Below are positions 10,331 to 17,096 of a DNA stretch of 64,000 nt, one piece after another. A program made the position numbers and the translations under genes. Positions within the stretch are counted from its first letter, which is position 1, and every line of letters starts with the position of its first letter. Source of the DNA: Candidatus Nanoarchaeia archaeon (GTDB taxonomy: Archaea > Nanobdellota > Nanobdellia > SCGC-AAA011-G17 > JAUYJU01). Under the pieces are notes generated by a model. It saw only the letters and a program-made list of their open reading frames with translations. It was not told the DNA's origin and made no database searches. The stretch is taken from NCBI GenBank assembly GCA_030700155.1, contig JAUYJU010000016.1, forward strand, positions 1,188 through 65,187. Reading direction: 5' to 3'.

Positions 10331-10978
10331 ATGGATAAAATAATTGGTATTGATGAAGCTGGTCGTGGGCCGGTAATAGGACCTATGGTAATGGCTGGAG
10401 TTTTAATTAGTGAAGACAAGCAAGATGACCTTAGGAAAATAGGAGTTAAGGATTCTAAGTTATTAACTGCCAAAAAAAGAGAAGAACTTTATAACCAAAT
10501 TGTTAAGATGGCTGAAAAGATAGCTATTGTTATTATATCACCTAAAGAGATTGACGAAGCTGTTGAGTCTCAAACTTTAAACTTAAATTGGTTAGAAGCT
10601 ATTAAAACTGCTGAATTGATAAATGCTGCAGAGCCTGATAGGGCTTATATTGACTGCCCTTCTAATAATATTGAAGCTTATAGAAATTATTTGAAAAAAC
10701 TTTTGAGAAAAGATGTGAAATTGATTGTAGAGCACAAAGCTGATTTTAAATATTCAACTTCGGCTGCTGCTTCTATTATTGCTAAAGTAACTAGAGACAG
10801 GGAAATTACAAAGATTCAAAAAAGGTTTAAAGATCCAATGGGTTCTGGGTATCCTGCTGATCCTGTGACTGTAGAGTTCCTGAAAAAACACTGGAAAGAG
10901 GATCAGGGAATCTATAGAAAAAGCTGGGAAACGTATAAAGAGTTGGAACGTAATTCTAGCCAGAAGACTTTAATTTAA
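10331..10978 (+). CDS. rnhB: Ribonuclease HII
   Basis: N-terminal IIGIDEAGRGPVIGPMV catalytic motif. Confidence 0.85.
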   Translation: MDKIIGIDEAGRGPVIGPMVMAGVLISEDKQDDLRKIGVKDSKLLTAKKREELYNQIVKMAEKIAIVIISPKEIDEAVESQTLNLNWLEAIKTAELINAAEPDRAYIDCPSNNIEAYRNYLKKLLRKDVKLIVEHKADFKYSTSAAASIIAKVTRDREITKIQKRFKDPMGSGYPADPVTVEFLKKHWKEDQGIYRKSWETYKELERNSSQKTLI

Positions 10979-12022
10979 ATTTTTAAAAATTTCTTTTCTA
11001 AACTTATAAGTATTAGCTTGCATTGCATATCCAAACCATCCGTGCAAACTGTTGATAAAATTATCATAAGTCAACAGTCCTTCCTTAAATAAGTTTAATC
11101 TTTCATTAAAACTCTTTTCAAATTTCTTCTTATTGCTTCTTCTTAACAATTTATAGTGGTAAAATATCTTATAACCTAGAAAGCTTACGCCGTTTCTTAA
11201 AGACAGTATTTTAGACTTGTCAGGATGTAGTTTTAGTTTAAGCTTGTTAATCAAATAATTGTTTATTATCTCTTTATAATATTCAAGAATTTTCCTATTT
11301 TTATGTAAAATCACAAAATCATCAACGTATCTTATATAGTATTTCGCTTTAAGTTTGTGTTTTACAAAATAATCTAATTCATTCAAATAAACATTAGCAA
11401 AAAATTGAGAAGTGAGGTTGCCCAAAGGCATTCCTCTGCCATTAATTTTTGGACTAAAATTACCTAATATTTGTTTTATTATCCAGATTACTTTTTCGTC
11501 CTTTATCTTTTTATGAATAATTCCCAGCAAAACCTTATGAGAGACGGTTTCAAAATAATGCTTAATATCAGCTTTCAGTAAATAGCCTTGAACCAAGTTG
11601 TTATCAAAAACATTATTTACTAATCTACCATTGCTAGAAACTTTTCTTTTGAATTTATCAAATCTTAAAACTGCCTTACTTGTTCCTTTTTTAAGTCTGC
11701 TGGCGTAAGAATCGTGTATAAATCTTTTCTCAAATATATCGCCTATTACATTAATTATCGCGTGATAAACTACTCTGTCTCTGAAATCTGAAGCGTGTAT
11801 AATCCTTGTTTTTGGTTCTCTTATAATAAACTTTTTTAGTAGTCTAGGAATATATGTTTGAGACTCTAATTCTTCTTTTAATTTATTTAAATTATTTTTA
11901 AGATTTGCTTCAAACTTTTTGACATAAGGTCTCTTTGACTTTCTTTTTCTGGCTTTTCTGAAAGCCTTGCTTAGATTCTCTATTGAACAAAGTTCTTTGT
12001 ATAATTTGTTGTAAGTTTTCAT
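10970..12022 (-). CDS. DGR-type reverse transcriptase
   Basis: RT motifs including YIRYVDDFVILH (YxDD) and MPLGNLTSQFFANVYLNELD. The SQ in motif 4 is the DGR RT hallmark (group II intron RTs have SP). 350 aa, no maturase/endonuclease domains; adjacent TR. Confidence 0.85.
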   Translation of the reverse strand: MKTYNKLYKELCSIENLSKAFRKARKRKSKRPYVKKFEANLKNNLNKLKEELESQTYIPRLLKKFIIREPKTRIIHASDFRDRVVYHAIINVIGDIFEKRFIHDSYASRLKKGTSKAVLRFDKFKRKVSSNGRLVNNVFDNNLVQGYLLKADIKHYFETVSHKVLLGIIHKKIKDEKVIWIIKQILGNFSPKINGRGMPLGNLTSQFFANVYLNELDYFVKHKLKAKYYIRYVDDFVILHKNRKILEYYKEIINNYLINKLKLKLHPDKSKILSLRNGVSFLGYKIFYHYKLLRRSNKKKFEKSFNERLNLFKEGLLTYDNFINSLHGWFGYAMQANTYKFRKEIFKNLN

Positions 12023-12049
12023 TCTTAATCGCCTAGTAAATCTTGGGCT

Positions 12050-12160
12050 ATTCCAAGGTCGGAAGTCTCGTCTAATTTCTTAGATTTCGAGTTCTGCGGA
12101 TTCCTGTTGCAATTCAGGTTAACCCTATCGGAATTCGCATCGAACCTCGCGACAGCTGTA
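12050..12160 (-). repeat. DGR template repeat (TR); aligned core 12084..12156
   Basis: Aligns to VR1 and VR2; every difference is at a plus-strand T, i.e. a template adenine on the coding (minus) strand. Confidence 0.85.
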
Positions 12161-12400: not shown

Positions 12401-13204
12401 TCAAATTTTTTCGCGCGCCTGACGTACCCCAAGGCCGGAATTCGAGTACTGCGGATTCCTGTCGCAATCCAGGCCAACCCTATCGGAATCCGCACCGAAC
12501 CCCGCGACATGTTGGTCTCTAGGGAACCAGTAGTGTAAGCTTCCATTATTTGCATTTGGTAAAGGCAATCCTTGAGAAGTTGCATTTTGCAACCAATCTT
12601 CCAAATCTATTCCTGGATCTCTATCTGTCATCAAACAATCTTCCAAAGGTTCTGAATATTTTGGCTGTAATGGTCCATTTACAATTCTATGTCCATAATC
12701 AACCATAAATTCGCTTACTCCTAAAATACCTTTAAAGCCTTTTTTGGATTGCTTTCTGAATTTGGCATCTAGCCACTCTGCCCTATAGGGACTTCTTACT
12801 TCAATGATTTCATTTAAAATTTGAGTTACTCCTTGAGGATTTACTTTCTTTCCTGTTCCGTCGTAAACTACTTTTCCTGATTTTAACAAATTAAGGAAAT
12901 CTACGTACTGCCTTATTGTAAGCATGAAGTTTCCTTCATCGTGTAAACTTTTATGAACTTGATTCCAAGTGTGGTTGTGATATTTTCTTTCTTTTGAAAC
13001 TAACAAATCAGGATATGAATAAGAACCGTGAGTTCTTCCTTCCAATATTAAATAAGCTTCAGGATTTGAAATATTTGAAGCTGGAATTATTATCTTAGGT
13101 TTTGGTTGAGGTTCTGGAGTTTCTTTCTTAGAGTCTAAACTAGCCAGAACTTTTTTCAAATTTTCTTTAGGATCTCTTCCAAAGAATCTTTTAGGTTTTG
13201 TCAT
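12401..13204 (-). CDS. DGR target protein 1 (variable C-terminus; FGE-sulfatase / C-type-lectin-like fold inferred)
   Basis: VR1 occupies the last ~30 codons before the stop. N-terminal 41 aa identical to target 2. C-terminus ..GVRQAREKI. Confidence 0.75.
   Translation of the reverse strand: MTKPKRFFGRDPKENLKKVLASLDSKKETPEPQPKPKIIIPASNISNPEAYLILEGRTHGSYSYPDLLVSKERKYHNHTWNQVHKSLHDEGNFMLTIRQYVDFLNLLKSGKVVYDGTGKKVNPQGVTQILNEIIEVRSPYRAEWLDAKFRKQSKKGFKGILGVSEFMVDYGHRIVNGPLQPKYSEPLEDCLMTDRDPGIDLEDWLQNATSQGLPLPNANNGSLHYWFPRDQHVAGFGADSDRVGLDCDRNPQYSNSGLGVRQAREKI
12419..12499 (-). repeat. DGR variable repeat VR1 (3' end of target 1)
   Basis: 71-nt alignment to TR with 9 mismatches, all TR-T(plus)/A(coding) to A or C. 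Followed by GC-rich ccaaggccgg..cgcgcgcc (IMH plus possible hairpin). Confidence 0.85.
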
Positions 13205-14911
13205 TGTTTCACAAACCTCTTGTAAGTATTTGTTGCTGTATTAACCATTAATTTTGAAAGTTCATCTCCTGAATTTACATAAAACACAGGTAACTCCATA
13301 TTCTCAAGATCTTGCGTGAATGCATTTGATCTTCCTATTTGAATATGTGCAAAATAATTGTCTTTAGTTAATCTTTCAAATTCAGATTTAGCTGAACTCC
13401 AATTTTCTATCTCTCCGTCTGAAATAGACAAAACAAAACTTTCTCTTCCATTTAAAGCATCAACTAAAGTTTTTGCGTCTAATCTTGTGTCTTCCCAATC
13501 TGGAGATAAAGCTAATTTTCTTAGTTTTTGAATATTCTTGAAATCTGATTCTTCATATCTTGTATTTGAAGAAAATAATGATAATCCATGTCCAATATAC
13601 TGAGCTATTCCCTGAGATTGTAAAAACTGTTCAATGCCATAAAAACCTAATAAAGCATAATGATATTTACTATTATCCCCCCAAGGAATAAAAGTCGTAT
13701 CTCCTTGATTTCCATTAATTCCTTCCTGCATAGATCCTGAATTATCCAAGACAACCATCTTGAAATCAGGGAAAGACCTTTTCTGGACTTTTGCTTTTTG
13801 AGTTATTGTCAAAGGTGTTCTTTGATATCCAAATGTAATTCCTTCGTCTGTTGCATATAATTTAGTATGTTTGACTTTTCTAATGTCGTCTGTCTCTGGG
13901 TCAAAAGGTCTGAAATTTAAAGGTGCTATTGCCAAGCCTTGCTCTCTAGTCATTGCTTCAACTTCAACTGGAATTGACCTAGCTAACCTTCTGTATAATA
14001 AATCTAACTGCTCATGAGATTCAAAATTGGGTGAAAGTCCTTCTCCAGATTTGTAGCGTCCATAAGCGACTTCTTCTTTGCCTTCTTTTGTTGAAGCTTT
14101 CTCTTCCAAACCATTTCCACTTGCATCTTGACCTTGAGAATCCTGCCATGCTGAAAGTCTTTCTGTTGGTGGTATTTCTAATAAAGGTTCTAAAGCTTTT
14201 GTAAACCTTGAAGCCATTTCAGGCCATCTTGATTTGTCAAATAGTTTATTTATATCTTTTTCATCCAGATTTAATTCTTTTATTGCTTTATTAACTGCTT
14301 TTTCAACTTCTTTTGTGTTTAAATTGTGCCTCTTTAATAAAGCTTTATCTGCATTGTCTCCCCATAAATGCATGTTTAATTTAACAAAAGCTTCATAAAA
14401 AGGAGTGTAACCTTCTTGCCCTTGTTTTCTGCTTTGAAATCCTTGGTCATCCCAGAATAAAACCTGTCCTGAAAAATTTCCAGTATAATCCCTACATCTT
14501 GCATTATTTATTAAATCTTCAAAAGCGTTTGCTACATAACCTGCCTGTCCTTGCTTGTCTTCTGGTAAGGATTCTTTTACTGCTTCTAAAACTAAATCGT
14601 GGTTATGCGTATCATAAGGGCATCCGAATCCTGAATTGAATGGAAGCTCCCAGTGCCCTAATTCATGGTGTAAAATATCAGTTAATAATTGTGTTTTTGC
14701 ATCTTCAATTTTCTTTTTTCTTGCGTAGGCTTTTTGCCTTCTGCCTGTTACTGGATTAAATCCTTTTTTAACATTCATTTCTATAGTCCAATCTTTTGGA
14801 TTTATGTGCGCAGAAACGTTTTCTTTTGCTTCATCATACTCATTTAATTTCAATGTTCCGCTAACTAGACCTATACTATTCTTTATCCGGTTTAATTCTT
14901 GAACTAAATTC
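13201..14911 (-). CDS. VWA-domain protein with N-terminal HExxH metallopeptidase-like motif (MoxR partner)
   Basis: MIDAS VVLDNSGSMQ in C-terminal half; LHHELGHWELP in N-terminal part. ORF-track start (14997) runs into VR2; real ATG (MNLVQELN) at 14911, 5 nt after target-2 stop. Confidence 0.65.
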
Positions 14912-14915
14912 ATTT

Positions 14916-15620
14916 TCAAATTTTTTCGCGCGCCTGACGTACCCCAAGGTCGGAACCCGAGCCCCGCGGATTCCAGCCGCAAAACAGGCCAACCCAATCG
15001 GAACCCGCATCGAACCCCGCGACAGCTTCATCTATTGGATGCCAGAAATAAACATTATCTCCCTGCTTGTACTTCTGCAATCTTGATTTTTTGGCAGGTA
15101 ATCCTTGTTTGTTTAAGCTTGATAAATCAGCATAACATTCTTCCATTACGCAGCTATCTAGAGATTCTGTATTCTGAGGTACTAATTTACCATTAATTAT
15201 TCTGTGATTGTAACTGATTTTTAATCCGTTATTGTTCGTGAAATAAGCATCAAGATGTTCTGCTCTCCAAGGATCTCTTTTTTCAGTGATTTCATTATAA
15301 ATATTTTTGAATTCATCATTTCCATTCTTTAGAGCTTCAAGAAAATCCAAGAATTCAGGAATTGTGAGCATTCTTGCATCTTCTTTGTGTAAAGATTCAT
15401 GTGATTGATACCAATTTTTATTAAAATGTGTTTTTTGTTTCGCTATGTATAAATTGCGTGAAGGCAAATAAATATAATCTTCTTTGTCAAGACCTTCTGG
15501 AATTATTATCTTAGGTTTTGGTTGAGGTTCTGGAGTTTCTTTCTTAGAGTCTAAACTAGCCAGAACTTTTTTCAAATTTTCTTTAGGATCTCTTCCAAAG
15601 AATCTTTTAGGTTTTGTCAT
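14916..15620 (-). CDS. DGR target protein 2 (paralog of target 1, variable C-terminus)
   Basis: VR2 at 3' end. First ~125 nt identical to target 1. C-terminus ..GVRQAREKI. Confidence 0.75.
   Translation of the reverse strand: MTKPKRFFGRDPKENLKKVLASLDSKKETPEPQPKPKIIIPEGLDKEDYIYLPSRNLYIAKQKTHFNKNWYQSHESLHKEDARMLTIPEFLDFLEALKNGNDEFKNIYNEITEKRDPWRAEHLDAYFTNNNGLKISYNHRIINGKLVPQNTESLDSCVMEECYADLSSLNKQGLPAKKSRLQKYKQGDNVYFWHPIDEAVAGFDAGSDWVGLFCGWNPRGSGSDLGVRQAREKI
14940..15023 (-). repeat. DGR variable repeat VR2 (3' end of target 2)
   Basis: Aligns to TR 12084..12157 with about 21 mismatches, all at TR T(plus)/A(coding). Same GC-rich 3' flank as VR1. Confidence 0.85.
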
Positions 15621-16809
15621 CAGCTAACCTCTCAAGCAAACTTTTCATGAAAGACCATCTGCCTGAAAATACACTAAGTAATCTCTCATTTTTCTTTCCC
15701 TTGTCTGCAAGTTCCAGTCCAGCAGCAATTTTATCTTTTCTGTCATCGCTAAATTCTGTTCTAGTTGCATTAATTACAGCATCCATTGCTTTATAATGGT
15801 CTTCTCCATAGGTTTGCCTTACTAAAGCTTCATTTAATATTCCAGAGTAAGCTGAAGTGAACTTGAAAGCCTGCATCATTGATTCTAGTGGATCAGGTGT
15901 TTCAGCGCCTTTTTCCTGAACAATTTGGTCTAAAGCTTGGCTTAATGTTATAATTGATTTTGCAGCTCTTGGTGATACTGGCAAAACCAAAGCAGCATCT
16001 GAACCAGCTTCATGATTTTCCAAAGCAGTTGGCCATGCAGACTTCATTTTAGTTTTGCTTTCTCCATTTTCTAAAGTATCAAGTCCATGGATCAAATACA
16101 AAGCTATTAATTTCTTTTCATCAGATACTTCAGCTTCATTTAGTTTTCTATGGGCTTCTCTGATTTCAGCGGTCTTATCTTCTGCTTTAGCATCAAAGTT
16201 AACTCTGGGGTTTCTGTCACCGGTCAGTATTTCAAAAGTGTCAATAGGCTGAGGTCTAAAATAATCTGTATCTATAACAAGATGCATTCTGTCTCTTAAA
16301 GCTCTTCCTAATTCATTTGATGATTCTGTAAATTGCTGCCCAATATTTCCAGTAGCAATACCTACTGAATATCCATCACCAATGGGATAAGCTTTTCCAT
16401 CTATTTCTATAAAACCATCAAATAAGTTAAATAACTGAGCACGAACAGCAGGAACACAATTAGGCAATTCATCAATAGTAATCAGATTATAATTAATCCT
16501 ATCAGTTAAATCCTTGAATTTAACTCCAGCTGCATCTCCTTGTTTCAATGCTTTCAGGAATTCAGGATTGACTTGCTGGAATAATTCTCTAGTATCCATA
16601 TCATTTCTTCCTAGAATAAATAATGATTTGTCTCCAAAATAATGAGCTACATCTCTTGCTAATTGAGTTTTACCAGAACCAGTATCACCCTGTAAGAAAA
16701 CGTTTAATCTTCCTCTTAGAGCGGCCTCTACCATGTCGTGCATGTAAATTGGAACTCCATTTAAGGTAGTTAATTCAGTACTATTTCTGTAATTCTTCGG
16801 TTTGAACAT
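15607..16809 (-). CDS. MoxR-family AAA+ ATPase (CbbQ/NorQ/GvpN-like)
   Basis: Walker A FLQGDTGSGKTQLARDV, Walker B ITIDELPN, MoxR lid VLPVSPRAAKSIITLSQA. 14-nt overlap with target 2. Confidence 0.8.
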   Translation of the reverse strand: MFKPKNYRNSTELTTLNGVPIYMHDMVEAALRGRLNVFLQGDTGSGKTQLARDVAHYFGDKSLFILGRNDMDTRELFQQVNPEFLKALKQGDAAGVKFKDLTDRINYNLITIDELPNCVPAVRAQLFNLFDGFIEIDGKAYPIGDGYSVGIATGNIGQQFTESSNELGRALRDRMHLVIDTDYFRPQPIDTFEILTGDRNPRVNFDAKAEDKTAEIREAHRKLNEAEVSDEKKLIALYLIHGLDTLENGESKTKMKSAWPTALENHEAGSDAALVLPVSPRAAKSIITLSQALDQIVQEKGAETPDPLESMMQAFKFTSAYSGILNEALVRQTYGEDHYKAMDAVINATRTEFSDDRKDKIAAGLELADKGKKNERLLSVFSGRWSFMKSLLERLADDKT

Positions 16810-17096
16810 CTTCTGCCTCCTTGACTACTTCTATTTTTACTTCTACTATAGTTTTAGGCTTTAAATCATTCTTTAAAAAACTAGGGATAACTATAACTGA
16901 TTGATTGCCGTGTTTTGCAATTTTCTTTGTAATTGTGTATGTTTTTGACATTTTTTATGTATAAACTATATATTTTTACTACTTTTTAGTAATTACAGTT
17001 ATATATAAAACTTTCTGTTTTTATATTGCTTTAAAATCGACTTAAATGGCTCTTTAAACCCAATTAACCTTATTAGCAAGTTTTATAAAGCAGAAA

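Follow-up and report, generated by a model that had tools for sequence, protein, structure and literature searches.

Two neighbouring DGR target genes of a nanoarchaeal contig begin with the same DNA and then part ways, which raises the question of what keeps their 5′ ends alike and what the encoded N-terminus does. In the window (the whole 64,000-nt, or 64-kb, stretch analysed), a repeat search and a DNA search revealed an exact 124-nt direct repeat on the minus strand, with 0 mismatches, which occurs in no more than two copies even when up to three mismatches are allowed (0 expected in shuffled sequences). The repeat starts at the A of the ATG in both ORFs and spans codons 1–41 plus one base, encoding MTKPKRFFGRDPKENLKKVLASLDSKKETPEPQPKPKIIIP (Table 1). 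The preliminary description had reported this identity of the two target 5′ ends; it is exact over 124 nt, with the second copy bounded at 15497 and not at 15496, because positions 13080 and 15496 differ. Codons 1–25 (about 13130–13204 in copy 1) encode the head motif, an FFG turn plus an amphipathic helix, and codons 26–41 of head copy 1 a K/P/E-rich spacer. The DNA upstream of the two copies is unrelated, being the 3′ end of a VWA-type gene for target 1 and that of an AAA gene for target 2, and the stop codon of the AAA gene falls within head copy 2. When the two targets were codon-aligned, their DNA was identical at 123/123 positions of the head, whereas identity was 0.55 over the body and 0.80 over the final 45 codons (the VR), confirming the earlier account of middles that diverge before the VR-encoded C-termini converge again. 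The tract of 124 nt with 0 differences thus stands against 45% difference in the body, and the probability of 124/124 matches given the body's identity is ~6e-33. No further head copies or VRs were found in the rest of the 64-kb window.

Table 1. Features of the cassette, with positions counted from the first letter of the window
Feature	Position	Strand	Details
s56, conserved 56-aa ORF opening the cassette	16781..16951	-	overlaps the start of the AAA gene
AAA+ ATPase, 400 aa, AAA_5 (MoxR/dynein-like) type	15607..16809	-	Pfam AAA_5 3.6e-10
DGR target 2, 234 aa, 'DYIYLPSRNLYIAKQ' body subfamily, C-terminal VR	14916..15620	-	ORF
Head copy 2	15497..15620	-	codons 1–41 (+1 nt) of DGR target 2; same as copy 1
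VR2, variable repeat of target 2	14953..15024	-	76% identical to TR
570-aa protein between the two targets	13201..14913	-	N-terminal helical HExxH domain, C-terminal VWA fold
DGR target 1, 267 aa, 'YLILEGRTHGSYSYPDLLVS' body subfamily, C-terminal VR	12401..13204	-	ORF
Head copy 1	13081..13204	-	codons 1–41 (+1 nt) of DGR target 1; exact 124-nt repeat
VR1, variable repeat of target 1	12438..12509	-	88% identical to TR
Template repeat (TR) core, interval between target 1 and the RT gene	12083..12154	-	TR/VR alignment
DGR reverse transcriptase (RT), 350 aa	10970..12022	-	Pfam RVT_1 2.9e-19, PADLOC RT 5.9e-52

Both genes are true DGR targets: all mismatches in the 72-nt TR/VR core lie at adenines of the TR, 9/9 for VR1 and 17/17 for VR2. 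A GC-rich 3′ flank, CCTTGGGGTACGTCAGGCGCGCG, was common to the repeats in the TR/VR comparison. The RT ORF also matched a group-II RT-like model at 1.4e-40, below the cutoff of that model. The two targets show 46% identity over their full length and 44% over the body alone, and the 173 homologues of target 1 are all Nanoarchaeota-type. The AF2 model of target 1 had a pLDDT of 92, and its best PDB matches (TaqVP, FGE and C-type lectins) were weak, with E values of at least 0.18. A helix was predicted at residues 12–25, and the first 40 residues had a pLDDT of 58–81; some of the head may accordingly lie against its own body instead of extending freely. A viral origin was rejected, as no IMG/VR relatives were found and the window cassette sits among housekeeping genes.

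Neither the targets nor the 570-aa protein encoded between them matched any family in Pfam, NCBIfam, PADLOC or a PDB sequence search. The 570-aa VWA protein has at least 348 homologues. In 21 of its homologues, H83/E84/H87, D390/S392/G393, T451 and D499 were invariant and S394 nearly so, the MIDAS residues of its VWA fold being DxSxS/T/D. Its AF2 model had a pLDDT of 84, and Foldseek matched the VWA domain to the integrin alpha-M I domain, TFIIH p44 and the NorD VWA domain (probability 1.0, TMt 0.43–0.65). The ATPase gene lies directly upstream of target 2, with an overlap; its product matched AAA_5 over residues 36–174 with 40.4 bits against a cutoff of 22, and also weakly matched GvpN and ClpB-type models. 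By tblastn, 15 related loci have the small ORF s56 ahead of their ATPase gene, at 61–74% identity, and profile searches matched it to no family.

About 75–76 related Nanoarchaeota (Woese-/Pacearchaeota) loci were compared. At least 22/76 of them contain a conserved cassette that runs from a small ORF through an AAA_5 ATPase, one or more targets, an HExxH+VWA protein and a further target to the TR and RT, its targets being interspersed with the AAA and VWA genes. Every target of one cassette begins with the same head of ~20–25 residues, in which a hydrophobic-x-F/W-hydrophobic-G turn leads into an amphipathic helix that keeps an acidic–basic pair, and continues with a Pro/Lys/Glu-rich spacer of 15–25 aa (41–52 aa in all before the body); the bodies behind it, of a putative lectin fold, span at least four old subfamilies. 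A few non-lectin ORFs in such cassettes also bear the head: in L022, eight ORFs with the head surround the AAA and VWA genes, and one of these, of 173 aa, is without a VR, and L001 encodes three proteins with a common head, two without a VR. Where a locus had 4 kb or more of sequence upstream but no AAA/VWA genes, its targets were headless, bore a different 'MAPIIEVS' head or carried other domains. The association of head class with AAA–VWA clade is confounded by the common ancestry of whole cassettes. A second cassette in the same MAG (P0002, P0122) encodes a VWA protein 82% identical to that of the window, with a head only about 40% identical. When heads were locally aligned with the AAA, VWA and s56 proteins encoded beside them, no recurrent head-like segment emerged (a single isolated match, in L056), implying that any docking would be heterotypic.

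Comparison of heads with bodies showed that the two evolve differently. By the first 25 aa, the nearest neighbour of a target was in the same locus for 45/58 targets, against 10/58 by body; the nearest body was in another locus for the other 48. Head identity was 0.77 for the best within-locus match and 0.55 for the best match elsewhere, the within-locus match being higher in 40/50 (Wilcoxon p = 2.7e-7; 16/19 loci), whereas the corresponding body identities were 0.34 and 0.53. At identical residues the codons were also identical in 74% for heads and 55% for bodies, and the ratio of non-synonymous to synonymous codon differences was 1.1 in heads and 4.2 in bodies. The similarity sets in exactly at the ATG and extends for 60–135 nt, with the 45 nt upstream at chance in all loci. 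Between loci the peptide motif is kept but the nucleotide sequence is not; the window head is identical at 19/41 residues to the T1-type relative P0002 and equally at 19/41 to the T2-type relative P0067, a balance that favours neither direction of conversion in the window. Heads thus show concerted evolution: they change together inside one locus and drift apart from one locus to another, so that paralogs of a locus resemble each other more closely than orthologs of different loci do, over a tract of limited length and at synonymous sites too.

The codons indicate two processes. Heads are codon-identical in the window (24/24 in the first 25 codons, 41/41 overall), L021 (22/22) and L027 (20/20), and nearly so in L012 (21/23). 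In other loci the residues are kept and the codons have drifted, as in L002 (16/22 aa with 4/15 codons) and L018 (14/24 aa with 2/12 codons). The identity of the window pair at all synonymous sites needs a recent non-reciprocal exchange, and the loci in which head residues are kept with codons at or below background need selection at the protein level. Recent gene conversion and strong constraint, originally offered as alternatives, are therefore both borne out and act together. The heads are kept matched first by gene conversion over short tracts, anchored where the homology sets in, at the start codon, which accounts for the synonymous-site identity in the window, and second by purifying selection on the peptide.

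Our joint reading, which we consider probable, is that a cassette-wide head is the rule, that conversion and selection keep it matched, and that it acts as a locus-specific address tag. The head is best read as an adaptor, specific to its locus, that would link each variable protein to the same ATPase/VWA machinery. We infer that the ATPase is most probably its constant partner, with the HExxH-VWA protein a putative co-factor or processing enzyme. The machinery would recognize the tag and hold the target on a flexible tether, and the tagged hypervariable proteins, with occasional non-lectin cargo, would be remodelled, assembled or processed by it; the DGR rewrites the C-terminal VR of the putative lectin-fold body, and body plus VR would give variable ligand specificity. 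The preliminary description had suggested a docking or tether peptide, which agrees with the anatomy (head helix, P/K/E-rich spacer, lectin-fold body) and with the comparison, as the head type is on all targets of AAA/VWA cassettes, absent from targets elsewhere and present on a few non-lectin ORFs of such cassettes; the identity of the partner is the part that we infer. The more specific idea of a ligand for the VWA MIDAS site was weakened. Although extended peptides are among the ligands of vWA MIDAS sites, and MoxR-vWA pairs have client proteins on which they act (PMC7159879), the L016 and L056 cassettes keep their heads and ATPase with no VWA gene within 8 kb, arguing against the MIDAS as an obligatory receptor.

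A further step, which we advance tentatively and hold at somewhat less than even, is that the heads form a fast-evolving, cassette-specific address code by which the MoxR-like ATPase and HExxH-VWA protein load, remodel or proteolytically arm the DGR repertoire and the odd non-lectin cargo, with cassettes orthogonal to one another. If so, different heads would keep cassettes in the same cell apart, as for the cassette pair of the same MAG. Such a code would parallel Death-like/EAD adaptor wiring, in archaea and at the size of a peptide, and would give a first mechanistic handle on the role of DGR targets in DPANN archaea.

It is unlikely, in our judgement, that the N-terminus instead assembles paralogous targets of one locus into mixed oligomers, such as fibre or receptor bundles. 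Homotypic contacts would require a head to match its siblings, not an ATPase or a VWA receptor, and the within-locus matching is as predicted, the core proteins are without a head-like segment, and EAD adaptors, whose adjacent copies are closest relatives, are inferred to pair homotypically (Kaur et al., PMC7159879). However, L016 is a single-target cassette and yet has the head, the head type goes together with the ATPase, and a turn plus one helix of 20–25 aa is small for a specific oligomerization domain. A removable leader or propeptide, in which head plus spacer are recognized and cleaved by the HExxH domain of the 570-aa protein, seems less probable still. All targets would have to keep the same recognition and cleavage sequence. 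The HExxH is invariant in a protein encoded between the targets, the spacer is extended and low in complexity, and proteolytic release has been proposed for bacterial MoxR-vWA ternary systems (PMC10907252); against this, heads are kept in cassettes without the HExxH-VWA gene, the spacer/body junction has no visible conserved cleavage motif, and the protease activity is putative, since the HExxH domain matches no known peptidase family.

The complete synonymous-site identity in the window, between tandem paralogs 2.4 kb apart that suit conversion, might also be the trace of a single recent partial duplication or conversion tract without function. This is very improbable, because 5′-restricted matching recurs in 16/19 independent multi-target loci, persists where codons have diverged, and involves body subfamilies otherwise too diverged for recombination. 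Hardly credible, finally, is a nucleic-acid element (5′ structure, regulatory or recombination site) or an artefact of repeat handling by the assembler: the identity in the window as assembled is exact, and L019 has an N run right after the shared head, a sign that assemblers and scaffolders struggle at such repeats, but similarity begins at the ATG, the peptide motif and not the nucleotide sequence is conserved between loci, and copies that are 84–99% identical and non-exact occur in assemblies from different projects and assemblers, the recurrence in about 16 independent loci making an assembly artefact very unlikely. RNA structure in the 124 nt was rejected (fold z = -1.25, with 26/200 shuffles folding as well), as was an upstream promoter or RBS element, given the chance identity of the 45 nt upstream in all loci.

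DGRs are unusually abundant in DPANN archaea. The handle found here is present on every target of a cassette, specific to the locus and tied to an interleaved pair of AAA_5 ATPase and HExxH-VWA protein, so that an anonymous cluster of 'hypothetical proteins' becomes a concrete and testable model of constant tag, tether and variable binding head served by one ATP-driven machine. The MoxR-vWA/DGR association of multicellular bacteria thereby reaches ultra-small archaea, and, being short, the head is a candidate for a portable tag in engineering. The cassette and its shared N-termini are absent from Wu 2018, Roux 2021, Handa 2016, Kaur 2020 and Doré 2024, a set of papers that does not cover the DPANN DGR survey of Paul et al. 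2017.

The archaeal head is best read as a variation on the adaptor principle of the known MoxR-vWA conflict systems in bacteria. Like the EADs of bacterial MoxR-vWA/GTPase systems, heads are small, non-enzymatic terminal modules near a MoxR-type ATPase/vWA core, with adjacent gene copies the closest relatives of each other, and are joined to variable 'business' domains, which for EADs include DGR-diversified FGS/lectin-fold domains (Kaur, Burroughs, Iyer & Aravind 2020, PMC7159879). Heads likewise occur as a terminal module on several proteins per locus, a likeness to EAD1–EAD10 that concerns architecture. EADs, however, are whole, mostly helical domains, whereas the module here is about 20–25 aa plus spacer; and one EAD copy sits on a core component, with which pairing is thought to be homotypic, whereas none was found here on AAA, VWA or s56, so that EAD-style wiring through such a copy was rejected. 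EAD systems are also bacterial, unlike these DPANN cassettes, which are without VMAP, iSTAND or effector enzyme.

In the DGR-coupled MoxR-vWA 'ternary' loci of multicellular bacteria (Doré et al. 2024, PMC10907252), a DGR likewise diversifies protein C-termini, there lectin-fold domains, beside a MoxR-like ATPase and a vWA domain, often with two targets, some of which have N-terminal extensions of unknown function. The bacterial loci mostly have target and vWA in one fused protein and include peptidase or TIR effectors (PMC10907252), whereas the archaeal VWA belongs to an HExxH protein of its own, whose gene lies between those of free-standing targets. An AAA_5-type ATPase gene with a VWA/MIDAS protein is also found in the MoxR-VWA chaperone pairs NorQ–NorD, CbbQ–CbbO, RavA–ViaA and midasin, and the VWA domain as modelled here superposes on that of NorD in the NorQD complex. 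The VWA domain of such pairs holds the client and the ATPase remodels it (PMC7159879; PMC13036017). Chaperone pairs serve one metalloenzyme client, whereas the clients here would be a hypervariable repertoire with a common tag, and the VWA protein here has an extra HExxH domain and matches no family model.

In multigene families, segmental gene conversion keeps constant 5′ regions evolving in concert. As in those families, a short terminal tract is homogenized while the rest diverges, and identity within a genome exceeds that between genomes; no evidence of silent cassettes or programmed switching was found here. What differs is that the other gene end, the VR, is homogenized as well, by DGR retrohoming from one TR. 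The two ends of a target gene are thus homogenized differently, the 5′ end by conversion and selection and the 3′ end by retrohoming, with the middle free to diverge.

A complete DGR lies on the minus strand of the window, and its components are listed in the table below. All differences between the cores of the TR (template repeat) and the VRs (variable repeats) fall on TR adenines, 9 of 9 in target 1 and 17 of 17 in target 2, showing that both genes are real DGR targets. The preliminary description had reported that the two targets share an exact 5′ repeat. A repeat search and a DNA search confirmed this, with the start of the second copy corrected from 15496 to 15497: 13081–13204 and 15497–15620 are identical across 124 nt, with no third copy in the window and none expected by chance. 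In both genes the first base of the repeat is the A of the ATG, and its last is the first base of codon 42. The genes abutting the two copies upstream are unrelated to each other; the end of the 570-aa gene and the start of copy 1 form an ATGA overlap, and copy 2 contains the stop codon of the AAA gene. For the codon-aligned DNA of the two targets, identity was 100% over the head, 55% over the body and 80% over the final 45 codons, which bear the VR, and the probability of 124 matches at the identity rate of the body is ~6e-33. On the 3′ side of the TR core (12030–12100, minus strand), the TR has ~19–21 nt (TAAGAAATTAGACGAGACT) that both VRs lack; they follow the adenine-mutagenised stretch and precede the common TCCGACCTTGG. 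With a possible CTTGG/CCAAG hairpin after the extra stretch, this 3′ architecture is unusual.

Components of the DGR cassette in the window
Feature	Position	Strand	Remark
RT	10970–12022	minus	part of window DGR
TR core	12083–12154	minus	part of window DGR
Target 1, 267 aa	12401–13204	minus	DGR target
570-aa protein (HExxH and VWA)	13201–14913	minus	between targets 1 and 2
Target 2, 234 aa	14916–15620	minus	DGR target
AAA_5 ATPase	15607–16809	minus	Pfam match
56-aa ORF s56	16781–16951	minus	overlaps AAA gene start

The 173 homologues of target 1 all came from Nanoarchaeia, Woesearchaeota or Pacearchaeota, and a scan of species-representative genomes gave 75 related loci (designated by L numbers). 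Using the window proteins as tblastn and HMM queries, we found a recurring cassette order (s56, AAA, one to several targets, HExxH-VWA, target, TR and RT) in at least 22 loci, including the strongly diverged versions L011, L014, L041, L020 and L065. Comparison of each locus with itself revealed a repeated pattern, in which paralogous targets share a short stretch of high identity at their 5′ ends while their bodies are too diverged for blastn (80 nt at 98.8% in L012, 136 nt at 96% in L021, 64 nt at 97% in L029, 55 nt at 100% in L019, 48 nt at 100% in L009, and 65–76 nt at 89–92% in L003, L005, L006, L034, L056 and L073). The similarity extended over 60–75 nt in most loci and ~125–135 nt in the window and L021. 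In a start-codon-anchored comparison, identity rose from chance (~4 of 15 nt) to 12–15 of 15 nt exactly at the ATG, excluding an upstream regulatory repeat. An RNA element was unsupported, as the fold z score was −1.25, the pattern was codon-phased and the peptide, but not the nucleotides, was conserved across loci. An assembly artefact, raised in the preliminary description, cannot account for the recurrence of this pattern, at 84–100% identity, across assemblies from many projects and assemblers, although the exact 100% identity of the window copies is that of the assembled sequence. In L019 (4907–5341), a scaffold gap, seen as a run of N (translated X), directly follows the 55-nt common head of the second target, which suggests that such repeats break or confuse assemblies.

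Protein comparison showed that the first ~20–25 residues, the head, are common to all targets of one locus (e.g. MKIQIPDNFMGKPIKGSIEKVLAGA in L012 and MAKIIGDKGKSxFDPDLAREINEKF in L022). The bodies belong to at least four old subfamilies, typified by 'YIILEGRTHGSYSYPDLLVS', 'DYIYLPSxNLYIAKQ', 'DYIQIPG..IIAK' and 'DYWxVSGVNYRNG'. The fourth type, in L018, L020 and L037, was overlooked by tblastn with the window targets; its members (e.g. L018 8775–9572) have the locus head and a VR-like C-terminus. Recent whole-gene target duplicates with 89–99.6% nucleotide identity flank the VWA gene on both sides in L018 (8769–9540 and 11331–12102), L066 (7985–8636 and 10431–11082) and L033 (572–1403 and 3113–3930), and the number of targets therefore turns over fast. 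Two typical Nanoarchaeota-type cassettes, L048 (CAYZBC010000410.1) and L073 (CAWKGG010000031.1, with several cassette genes in fragments), came from bins labelled Maribellus sp. and Methanosarcinaceae respectively, and are probably binning contaminants.

Among 58 targets of multi-target loci, the nearest neighbour lay within the same locus for 45 when judged by the head (first 25 residues), and for only 10 when judged by the body. Most of the 13 head exceptions came from closely related loci (L011/L014/L041 and L012/L018) with corresponding bodies 73–100% identical; the others were in L046 and L060. For the 50 targets, from 19 loci, with a diverged paralog in their own locus, the best head identity was 0.77 within the locus and 0.55 elsewhere (40 higher and 7 lower, Wilcoxon p = 2.7e-7; 16/19 loci). 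Body identity was 0.34 within and 0.53 elsewhere, the former being lower in 48/50.

The preliminary description had offered recent gene conversion or strong constraint, and both are supported and can be generalised. At identical residues of within-locus paralogs, codon identity was 74% in heads and 55% in bodies, the latter being the background due to codon bias. Codon-identical heads (24/24 in the window, 22/22 in L021, 20/20 in L027, 21/23 in L012 and 18/19 in L029) require recent non-reciprocal exchange. Other loci kept the peptide with codons at or below background (16/22 residues and 4/15 codons in L002, 14/24 and 2/12 in L018, 16/20 and 7/16 in L011), which requires selection on the amino-acid sequence. 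The loci thus form a spectrum from codon-identical heads to peptide-only conservation, and the ratio of non-synonymous to synonymous codon differences was 1.1 in heads compared with 4.2 in bodies. We read the 124-nt identity in the window as the product of a recent conversion event, covering a segment that would be kept matched by selection in any case. The tract would be anchored at the ATG because homology stops there; the head was as close to a target 1-type relative as to a target 2-type relative (19/41 identical for each), and either gene may have been the donor.

The window ATPase matched AAA_5 (MoxR/dynein-type) in Pfam with 40 bits (cutoff 22). The 570-aa protein had no match in Pfam, NCBIfam, PADLOC or PDB sequences, yet conservation is strong, with 57–82% identity to more than 120 homologues; the protein represents an undescribed family. 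Across 21 aligned homologues, the HExxH residues His83, Glu84 and His87 were invariant, as were the MIDAS-type residues Asp390, Ser392, Thr451 and Asp499, with Ser394 near-invariant. The HExxH, a putative metallopeptidase-like motif, sits in a ~310-aa helical N-terminal domain. The AF2 model (pLDDT 84) had a helical N-terminal half, and its C-terminal half superposed on integrin I domains, TFIIH p44 and the VWA domain of NorD (NorQD complex) with probability 1.0. The earlier labels 'MoxR' and 'VWA MIDAS' are therefore reasonable. s56 had no family match; tblastn placed it 5′ of the ATPase gene in 15 related loci (61–74% identity), and it could be an additional subunit or act as a small regulator. 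In the confident target 1 model (pLDDT 92), a short N-terminal helix (residues 12–25) is followed by an extended spacer and then by a globular body. The closest PDB matches of the body, all weak (E ≥ 0.18), were TaqVP (a DGR variable protein), FGE and C-type lectins.

Three lines of comparative evidence link the head to the cassette machinery. First, all 58 targets of AAA/VWA cassettes had a 41–52-aa pre-body segment composed of the head and a P/K/E-rich spacer. Targets of loci without AAA/VWA (at least 4 kb of upstream sequence) either lacked an extension or had larger domains or an unrelated 'MAPIIEVS...' head, and the near-identical bodies of L027_4 and L076 (79% identity) carried unrelated N-termini according to context. 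Secondly, broad head classes followed AAA/VWA clades, a correspondence confounded by common descent: 'xIPDxFMGK..GAxExxL' with AAA 47–73% identical to that of the window, the class typified by 'LDPAEIKRILEEEQ' and 'ITGNRTAEDII' with AAA of ~30% identity, and 'RPLLPVNPxGLDDIA' with a P-loop ATPase so diverged that tblastn misses it. Thirdly, the head is modular, as judged from non-VR proteins that carry it in L022 and L001. L022 (3845–12646) has eight head-bearing ORFs of two head sub-types around one AAA and one VWA gene, one of which (11374–11895, 173 aa) is without a VR or lectin-like C-terminus. L001 (9408–13573), a different cassette in which no AAA/VWA homologue was detectable, encodes three proteins sharing the head MA(K/D)xIY+xLxxKYxL(D/E)EL, two without a VR and only one a DGR-type target. 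In a second cassette of the same genome bin, the VWA protein was 82% identical to that of the window and the target head only ~40%, which fits locus-specific matching; local gene conversion alone would give the same.

A docking or tether peptide, as proposed earlier, is plausible, with comparative support. The MIDAS-specific version was weakened, since in L016 and L056 the ATPase and heads are present while the 8-kb flanks contain no VWA gene; the ATPase is therefore a better candidate than the MIDAS site for a constant receptor, should a single one exist. Two rivals to docking are live: homotypic pairing, head to head, and a leader that the HExxH domain would recognise and that would be cleaved off.

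It is known that DPANN archaea carry DGRs and that the targets of these have a lectin fold (PMC4372165, PMC5006420). Common target N-termini are not mentioned in the literature covered (Wu 2018, Roux 2021, Handa 2016, Kaur 2020 and Doré 2024), and an earlier description of the cassette elsewhere is possible. For multicellular bacteria, MoxR-vWA systems coupled to lectin (FGS) domains that DGRs diversify have been described, as have small effector-associated adaptor domains (EADs), of which adjacent copies are most alike (PMC7159879, PMC10907252). By analogy, the head may work as an EAD-type adaptor. One defining feature of an EAD is, however, a copy on a core component, and alignment of the heads with the AAA, VWA and s56 proteins of their own locus gave no recurrent similarity, with a single isolated hit in L056. 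The head also differs from EADs in being peptide-sized and archaeal, and in its cassette the targets are free-standing and interleaved, alongside an HExxH-VWA protein of no described family.
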